From a virus (Duplodnaviria > Caudoviricetes): a DNA stretch of 64,000 nt. The notes under the pieces were generated by a model. It had not been told where the DNA came from. It made no database searches and was given only the letters and a program-made list of their open reading frames with translations. Each line of letters begins with the position of its first letter. Position 1 is the first letter of the stretch. Positions 24,796-24,892 of this stretch are shown here, piece after piece. The stretch is from the IMG/VR virus record IMGVR_UViG_3300017700_000931, positions 1 through 64,000 of that record; one strand, given 5' to 3'. The position numbers were made by a program, and so were the translations under genes.

Positions 24796-24892
24796 TTAAT
24801 AGGTTATCATGAACTACTGCTACAACCACTTATCCTTGCTACCTTCCGGTCCTAGGGAGATTCATAGGAGCTAATACTCATAAGCCTATTAA
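24796..24892 (-). ncRNA. ffs: small SRP (4.5S) RNA
   Basis: 97-nt hairpin closed by UUAAUAGGCU/AACCUAUUAA; apex UAGG-ACC-GGAA-GGU-AGCA = helix-8 Ffh-binding motif. Confidence 0.8.

Follow-up and report, generated by a model that had tools for sequence, protein, structure and literature searches.

On the evidence of family models and sequence comparison, the genome of a very large phage carries a real, selected, phage-borne gene for a small signal recognition particle (SRP) RNA of the Bacteroidota type. The gene lies in the stretch of 64,000 nucleotides analysed here (the window), bases 1-64000 of an IMG/VR virus record that measures 362,532 bp, has direct terminal repeats and is rated 100% complete; the genome holds a single copy of the gene. 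A sequence-only reading of the window had called the RNA phage-encoded, and its location inside a complete virus record with direct terminal repeats bears this out. The role of the RNA is most likely to replace or supplement the SRP RNA of the host.

Identity and fold of the SRP RNA

The RNA is a 97-nt hairpin encoded on the minus strand within a phage tRNA operon (Table 1). Its 5' end UUAAUAGG (24892-24885) pairs with CCUAUUAA at the 3' end (24803-24796), and the coordinates of the hairpin are exactly those given by the sequence-only reading. Read along the minus strand, the apex is U-AGG / ACC / GGAA / GGU / AGCA-AGG; the SRP-type apex that had been claimed from the letters is thus the motif that we also find, with GGAA at 24847-24844 and both AGG and AGCA in place. 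In cellular SRP RNAs, AGCA is the core of the binding site for the Ffh M domain. The hairpin has the further features expected of SRP RNAs, a GNRA apex, AGG facing AGCA and ends paired in a long helix 5, together with those of the Bacteroidota type, an asymmetric loop (5' GAAUC, 3' UA) and the helix-5 blocks AGCUCC and GGUUGUAGC, all spaced as in cellular copies. AGCUCC is paired with GUAGC in the consensus structure of the cellular RNAs.

How well do the family models recognize the RNA? The Bacteria_small_SRP model (RF00169), a search with which the sequence-only reading had named as the check on its claim, is positive at its gathering score: model positions 1-97 are matched with 40.9 bits against a gathering score of 40, a margin of only 0.9 bit (E = 2.5e-5, when the whole 64-kb window was compared with all 4227 Rfam families). 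The Bacteroidales_small_SRP model (RF04183) gives 52.1 bits, about 3 bits below its cut-off of 55.2, and was the best family in a local scan with looser thresholds (E = 3.1e-9; 2.2e-10 per genome). A third model, R1, was built from 30 sequences, all of them cellular Bacteroidota SRP RNAs, and 19 of the 32 pairs in its consensus structure show covariation. The window copy scores 65.9 bits on R1 (E 4.6e-16), a value that is not fully independent, since the training sequences had been retrieved with a pattern taken partly from the phage RNA, and it forms 31 of the 32 consensus pairs of the cellular RNAs. The extents given by the three covariance models are 24795-24890 for RF00169, 24793-24898 for RF04183 and 24793-24899 for R1. 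The folding energy of the hairpin is not significant against shuffled sequences (z -0.4 to -0.6), so stability was not used as evidence; what supports the identity of the RNA is the family model, together with the comparison with other sequences.

Table 1. Positions in the window of the SRP RNA gene, its motifs and associated elements
Feature	Position	Strand	Detail
SRP (4.5S-type) RNA gene	24796..24892	minus	one long hairpin, helix 5 and helix 8
GGAA (GNRA) tetraloop	24844..24847	minus	closes helix 8 on the 3-bp stem ACC/GGU; aligns to the tetraloop of RF00169 and R1
Symmetric loop, 5' side, U-A-G-G	24851..24854	minus	AGG canonical, first base U
Symmetric loop, 3' side, AGCA	24837..24840	minus	invariant column block in cellular alignments
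AGCUCC	24867..24872	minus	5' half of the Bacteroidota-type helix-5 internal-loop region; upper-case block of the RF04183 consensus
GGUUGUAGC	24819..24827	minus	3' partner block of the Bacteroidota-type helix-5 motif; RF04183 consensus and consensus structure
tRNA-like element, 110 nt	24683..24792	minus	starts 3 nt after the SRP hairpin; fold z -2.66
Likely RNA-operon promoter	27173..27202	minus	-7 box TAATTTTG (27180-27173), upstream TTGCC (27202-27198)
-7 boxes of five RNA-operon starts	27173-27180, 16203-16210, 33616-33623, 31751-31758, 58515-58522	minus
Membrane-protein gene run	17733-22922	minus	directly downstream of the RNA operon; conserved with the sister phage G004

The window has a GC content of about 33%, a steady strand skew and 53 tRNA genes, all of them on the minus strand, and the protein families that it encodes include two T4-like RNA ligases, a CCA-adding enzyme, a DNA polymerase, GlnRS and an OmpA-domain protein. 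Five minus-strand genes by the tRNA arrays form an RNA-maintenance set (42908-43960, 47410-48537, 59226-60383, 10843-12459 and 62560-63690), the products being Rnl2-like and Rnl1-like RNA ligases, a CCA-adding enzyme, GlnRS and an NMN adenylyltransferase; the resemblance of this set to the tRNA-repair kit of T4 suggests a conflict over RNA cleavage. A search of the phage for the SRP54 GTPase domain and the M domain of Ffh and FtsY found neither, and the phage SRP RNA must therefore use host proteins. The phage was also searched for a tyrosine integrase, and none is present. The conserved membrane-protein gene run encodes a 366-aa protein with a strongly hydrophobic N-terminal region, a 608-aa N-anchored OmpA-domain protein and a 255-aa protein with five transmembrane segments. 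These genes for inner-membrane proteins lie 2-6 kb downstream of the SRP RNA on the same strand, and their products are possible SRP clients.

Bacteroidota type and descent of the gene

What places the RNA with the Bacteroidota? The blocks common to the window RNA and the RF04183 consensus are AGCUCC, GAAUC, the AGG-N10-AGCAAGG core and GGUUGUAGC. A pattern that joins AGCUCC, the AGG...AGCAAGG core and GGUUGUAGC is found in at least 120 genome contigs, nearly all of which are labelled Bacteroidota; the matches include Bacteroidales, Flavobacteriales, Cytophagales and Chitinophagales/Saprospiraceae, together with a few odd bins. When RF04183 was applied at E 0.001 to 14 control genomes, only Bacteroides thetaiotaomicron was positive. 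The exact 54-nt pattern was dropped as a phylum marker in favour of the Rfam model, since it marks only a subset: cellular copies differ in spacing and in a few bases, so that of 201 genomes sampled from the phylum just 4 contain it. In an unbiased sample of 61 genomes, drawn from the phylum of a Prevotella genome, RF04183 scores were bimodal, 29 genomes falling at 84-123 bits and 27 at 32-46 bits. The 55.2-bit cut-off is therefore narrow, with about half of the sample below it, and many genomes of the phylum would receive no SRP RNA call from RF04183 alone. Cellular Bacteroidota RNAs mostly reach 71-123 bits on this model (copies of five orders, 71-112), and about half of the phylum sample scores below the window copy.

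The window copy is diverged from all of these RNAs. Its GC content is 37%, compared with about 51% in cellular copies, and its identity to 115 cellular copies averages about 51% and is at most 58%. We abandoned the attempt to name a host below the level of phylum, the nearest cellular sequences (58%) being not clearly closer than the others. At the level of phylum, the type of RNA and, independently, the type of promoter point to a host among the Bacteroidota, which gives a host call to a clade of uncultured phages with genomes of about 360 kb. Like the Bacteroidota small SRP RNA described by RF04183, the phage RNA belongs to a class of about 105 nt, is a single hairpin, has the lineage-specific blocks and forms 31 of 32 pairs; it differs in being virus-encoded, AT-rich, about 51% identical, without a promoter or terminator of its own, and in having U for C beside AGG. 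With E. coli 4.5S RNA (ffs, RF00169) it shares a full-length model match, the GGAA tetraloop, the AGG/AGCA symmetric loop and the long helix 5. It differs from E. coli 4.5S RNA in having a Bacteroidota-type asymmetric loop and Bacteroidota-type internal loops in helix 5, in that the Ffh of a Bacteroidota host would be its partner, and in that its gene is without a promoter of its own.

A scan of viral contigs for AGCAAGG-N6-GGTTGTAGC found the SRP RNA in a second phage, IMGVR_UViG_3300000976_000009 (hereafter G004), a complete genome of 353,143 bp with terminal repeats, and an identical copy of the G004 RNA occurs in an 8.4-kb contig from another sample. The G004 RNA scores 58.7 bits on RF04183 and 40.6 bits on RF00169, above both cut-offs. 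For at least 20 kb, G004 and the window are collinear, with a nucleotide identity of about 70%, and the SRP RNA of G004 is at the syntenic site with the same neighbours. Identity between the two RNAs is 63% over the whole length, 78% for the core and 47% for the outer helix, and the non-coding DNA that flanks them cannot be aligned by blastn between the window and G004. Two side observations concern the surroundings of the gene in G004: a 69-codon ORF, which has no counterpart in the window, ends exactly where the SRP RNA begins (L266:9812-10021), and a tRNA with the anticodon UUA, expected to decode the stop codon UAA, is present within a cluster of Phe, Glu, Asp and Ala tRNAs (L266:1742-1814).

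Each phage copy forms 31 of the 32 consensus pairs, and with a structure derived from cellular RNAs alone, 97% of the alignment cells are paired across both copies, in an alignment that was fitted to the model and so favours pairing. Between the copies, 10 pairs are altered on both sides and at least 8 changes are compensatory double changes. The observed values of pairing and covariation were reached in none of 500 shuffles, and slid controls were 31-51% paired. At columns where cellular sequences are at least 90% conserved, the copies also have in common ten derived states; these ten derived characters are in helix 5 and include paired changes at 22/86, 23/85, 41/66 and 10/101. The retained pairs, the compensatory changes and the shared derived characters together argue for a single capture followed by lasting selection. 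Most simply, the gene would have been captured once from a Bacteroidota host by an ancestor of both phages, would then have taken on the base composition of the phage, and would have stayed under selection for its structure and core motifs. The pair can be viewed as a natural experiment on which positions of an SRP RNA can change, in which helix 5 has been almost wholly rewritten and its pairing kept.

Clear departures can be discerned in the symmetric loop. The window copy has U before AGG, at a position (column 45) that is C in at least 90% of cellular sequences, and one cellular sequence, L065 of the Flavobacteriales, shares this C-to-U change. G004 has AGA in place of AGG, and a G.A pair closes its apical stem. 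These departures could weaken or alter the binding of Ffh, and the presence of one in each phage copy keeps a modified or decoy role open.

Proposed transcription, processing and role

Cellular genes for this RNA have a -7 box, TAnnTTTG, 29-33 nt upstream of AGCUCC in 118 of 139 cases and a run of five Ts directly after the 3' end in 105 of 139. Neither the box upstream nor the T-run downstream is found at the two phage copies examined and, judged by these motifs, the phage gene no longer has the promoter and terminator that served it in the host. It would be transcribed from a likely promoter of the RNA operon (Table 1), about 2.3 kb upstream, and tRNA-Phe, one CDS and several odd RNAs precede the SRP RNA. 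A block of about 50 nt at this promoter recurs at four other RNA-operon starts in the window and consists of an A/T-rich stretch, cTTGCyAATT, about 20 nt, and then TAnnTTTG, which we take to be the Bacteroidota -7 box, as in Bacteroides promoters. No further TAnnTTTG box was found between the promoter at 27173 and the SRP RNA. The motif is not enriched across the window (109 occurrences against 97 +/- 10), so only its placement at operon starts is informative. A scan of the window for sigma-70 promoters and terminators gave results at the level of shuffled sequence; a weak terminator-like hairpin is present at 25594-25575, between the promoter and the SRP RNA.

How might the RNA be released from such a transcript? 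The tRNA-like element that all but abuts the SRP hairpin combines an acceptor-like stem of 7 bp and a T arm (GUUGG UUCAAAU CCAAC) with a non-tRNA interior, and only 2 of 200 shuffles were as stable as its predicted fold. It is a possible RNase P site, at which cleavage would form the 3' end of the SRP RNA and leave a short 3' tail. RNase P also trims the precursor of 4.5S RNA to its mature form, and a gene that sits among tRNA-like elements is in keeping with this. No obvious equivalent of the tRNA-like element was seen near the SRP RNA of G004.

What might explain why a phage that encodes neither Ffh nor FtsY keeps an SRP RNA? We propose, with a probability of about 0.55, that a captured SRP RNA is cut free of the operon transcript and associates with host Ffh, so that the SRP goes on working for phage inner-membrane proteins when the supply of host SRP RNA fails. 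The sequence-only reading had suggested that the RNA sustains or redirects the targeting of membrane proteins if host 4.5S RNA is degraded, which is a reasonable, if conjectural, view. The common ancestor of the window phage and G004 would have captured a host SRP RNA gene once, and the captured copy would then have lost the promoter and terminator of the host gene. The RNA would be made within a long transcript of tRNAs and non-coding RNAs from the Bacteroidota-type promoter about 2.3 kb upstream, and host RNA-processing enzymes would excise it, with RNase P, in this phage, forming the 3' end at the abutting tRNA-like element. The free RNA of about 100 nt is predicted to bind host Ffh through the domain-IV motifs, namely the AGG/AGCA symmetric loop, the GAAUC asymmetric loop and the GGAA tetraloop, so that a working signal recognition particle would stay available during infection. 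Phage inner-membrane proteins could then still be inserted co-translationally if host RNA synthesis were shut off or host RNA destroyed. E. coli 4.5S RNA is reportedly stable and in excess over Ffh, and extra RNA may therefore bring little benefit unless host RNA is lost. If the proposal is right, a very large phage with a long infection can be held back by how much host SRP RNA is available or by how intact that RNA stays.

Huge phages encode tRNAs, tmRNA, SmpB, release factors and ribosomal proteins (Al-Shayeb et al. 2020, PMC7162821). The logic of the SRP RNA would be the same as that of the tRNA arrays and tmRNA of these phages (PMC7162821), in that a stable host-type RNA of protein synthesis is carried by a very large phage in its tRNA clusters, but the SRP RNA serves membrane targeting and not decoding or ribosome rescue. 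A conserved SRP RNA would add co-translational membrane targeting to the huge-phage list of tRNAs, tmRNA, ribosomal proteins, aminoacyl-tRNA synthetases and translation factors.

Competing explanations and occurrence in other phages

Could the RNA work against the host SRP? It may bind host Ffh and be altered so as to change SRP behaviour, by slowing or blocking the targeting of host membrane proteins, by favouring phage clients, or by resisting a nuclease that removes the host RNA. Such a decoy or re-programming of Ffh is, in our estimate, unlikely enough to rank as an alternative only, and several observations fit it: both phage copies are altered in the near-invariant symmetric loop (U for C in one, AGA and the G.A pair in the other), helix 5 has the ten shared derived characters, the two RNA ligases and the CCA-adding enzyme of the phage make up an RNA-repair set of the kind typical of RNA-cleavage conflicts, and all that an unrelated phage of 183 kb has is a 59-nt domain-IV-like hairpin in its tRNA array, which could bind Ffh, the rest of the SRP RNA being missing. 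However, all other recognised determinants and the full helix 5 have been kept (31 of 32 pairs), which is more than a simple sponge needs, and the phage's own inner-membrane proteins should need the SRP. The C-to-U change, moreover, is also that of the cellular Flavobacteriales SRP RNA, which indicates that it is tolerated in a working SRP. A rather doubtful proposal is that of a countermeasure or takeover, in which the altered loop would allow the phage RNA to survive the destruction of host SRP RNA, whether by host defence or by phage shut-off, or would re-tune Ffh to phage membrane proteins. Were this true, SRP RNA would be a contested target in the conflict between phage and host, as tRNAs already are.

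It is also conceivable, if quite improbable, that the gene is a neutral passenger, picked up from the host with other host RNA genes and drifting unused. The RNA is limited to two known lineages and scores low against the Rfam cut-offs, each copy departs from the cellular type in the symmetric loop, and there is no promoter or terminator of its own, all of which a passenger would lead one to expect. Drift, however, would have broken the helices, whereas at about 63% identity the copies keep 97% of their pairs, with at least 8 compensatory double changes and 78% identity in the core, next to flanks that cannot be aligned. That the gene does not belong to the phage at all, and is either mis-assembled host DNA or an attP copy of the host ffs gene, is scarcely credible. 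Temperate phages can integrate into ffs, as Enterococcus phage phiEf11 does with a 27-nt block of identity (PMC12540744), and several viral contigs of about 40 kb carry high-scoring SRP RNAs of cellular type. In the window, however, the RNA has a phage-like GC content of 37% and at most 58% identity to any of the 115 cellular copies, is of full length and not a 3' fragment, and is deep inside an operon of tRNAs and non-coding RNAs; a second complete genome, which comes from other samples, has it at the syntenic position, and the phage has no integrase. Composition, divergence, syntenic recurrence and the missing integrase effectively refute both contamination and an attP site. Unlike phiEf11, which inserts into the host gene (PMC12540744), the present phage, without an integrase, holds a whole, diverged and structurally intact gene. 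Among these explanations, a replacement or supplement of host SRP RNA is the reading that we prefer.

The distribution of the gene bears on both the passenger and the preferred reading. The SRP RNA was not found, near the syntenic site or elsewhere, in the sequence examined of about 26 more distant members of the clade; many of these are fragments, so that the result is one of not being found in the sequence examined and not of absence, and the RNA would appear to be dispensable for this kind of phage. In 24 related loci, reached through the neighbouring 366-aa membrane protein (43-62% identity) in a survey of viral contigs and one metagenome scan, no such RNA was found within about 10 kb, with default filters on all loci and filters off on four. 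Four large relatives (53-70% complete) have no SRP RNA anywhere in that sequence, and none was found in seven contigs reached through a neighbouring 104-aa protein. A scan of viral contigs for AGG-N10-AGCAAGG-N-TA-NN-T-GGTTGTAGC gave 0 matches. A looser viral scan for AGCTCC...AGCA gave at least 117 matches, mostly due to chance, and was set aside.

The sequence-only reading had known of no phage SRP RNA, and the open literature that we searched likewise yielded no publication on one. SRP RNA is unmentioned in the survey of huge phages (PMC7162821) and in two reviews of jumbo phages, and the integration of a phage into ffs is the only link between phages and SRP RNA in the literature searched.

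SRP-like cores do occur elsewhere among viral contigs. A core of the proteobacterial/firmicute type, CAGG-N3-GGAA-N3-AGCAGC, was found in 87 viral contigs, none of them larger than 100 kb among those listed. A viral scan for AGG-NCC-GGAA-GGN-AGCA-NGG found four cellular-type SRP RNAs in contigs of 5-43 kb, and one mini-hairpin of 59 nt. The cellular-type SRP RNAs in small viral contigs are probably host flanks. The mini-hairpin belongs to the unrelated, GC-rich phage IMGVR_UViG_3300034782_000062 (182,770 bp), where it lies at C1:166921-166979 (L006:722-780) between two tRNA genes and near a tmRNA gene. It has a CCAGG...AGCAAGG symmetric loop and a GGAA tetraloop, is without the asymmetric loop and helix 5, scores 28.8 bits on RF00169, which is below the cut-off, and has a fold z of -4.0. 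This hairpin may be a minimal mimic of the Ffh-binding site, and if SRP RNA is indeed subject to a countermeasure or takeover, it would be a second, independent version.
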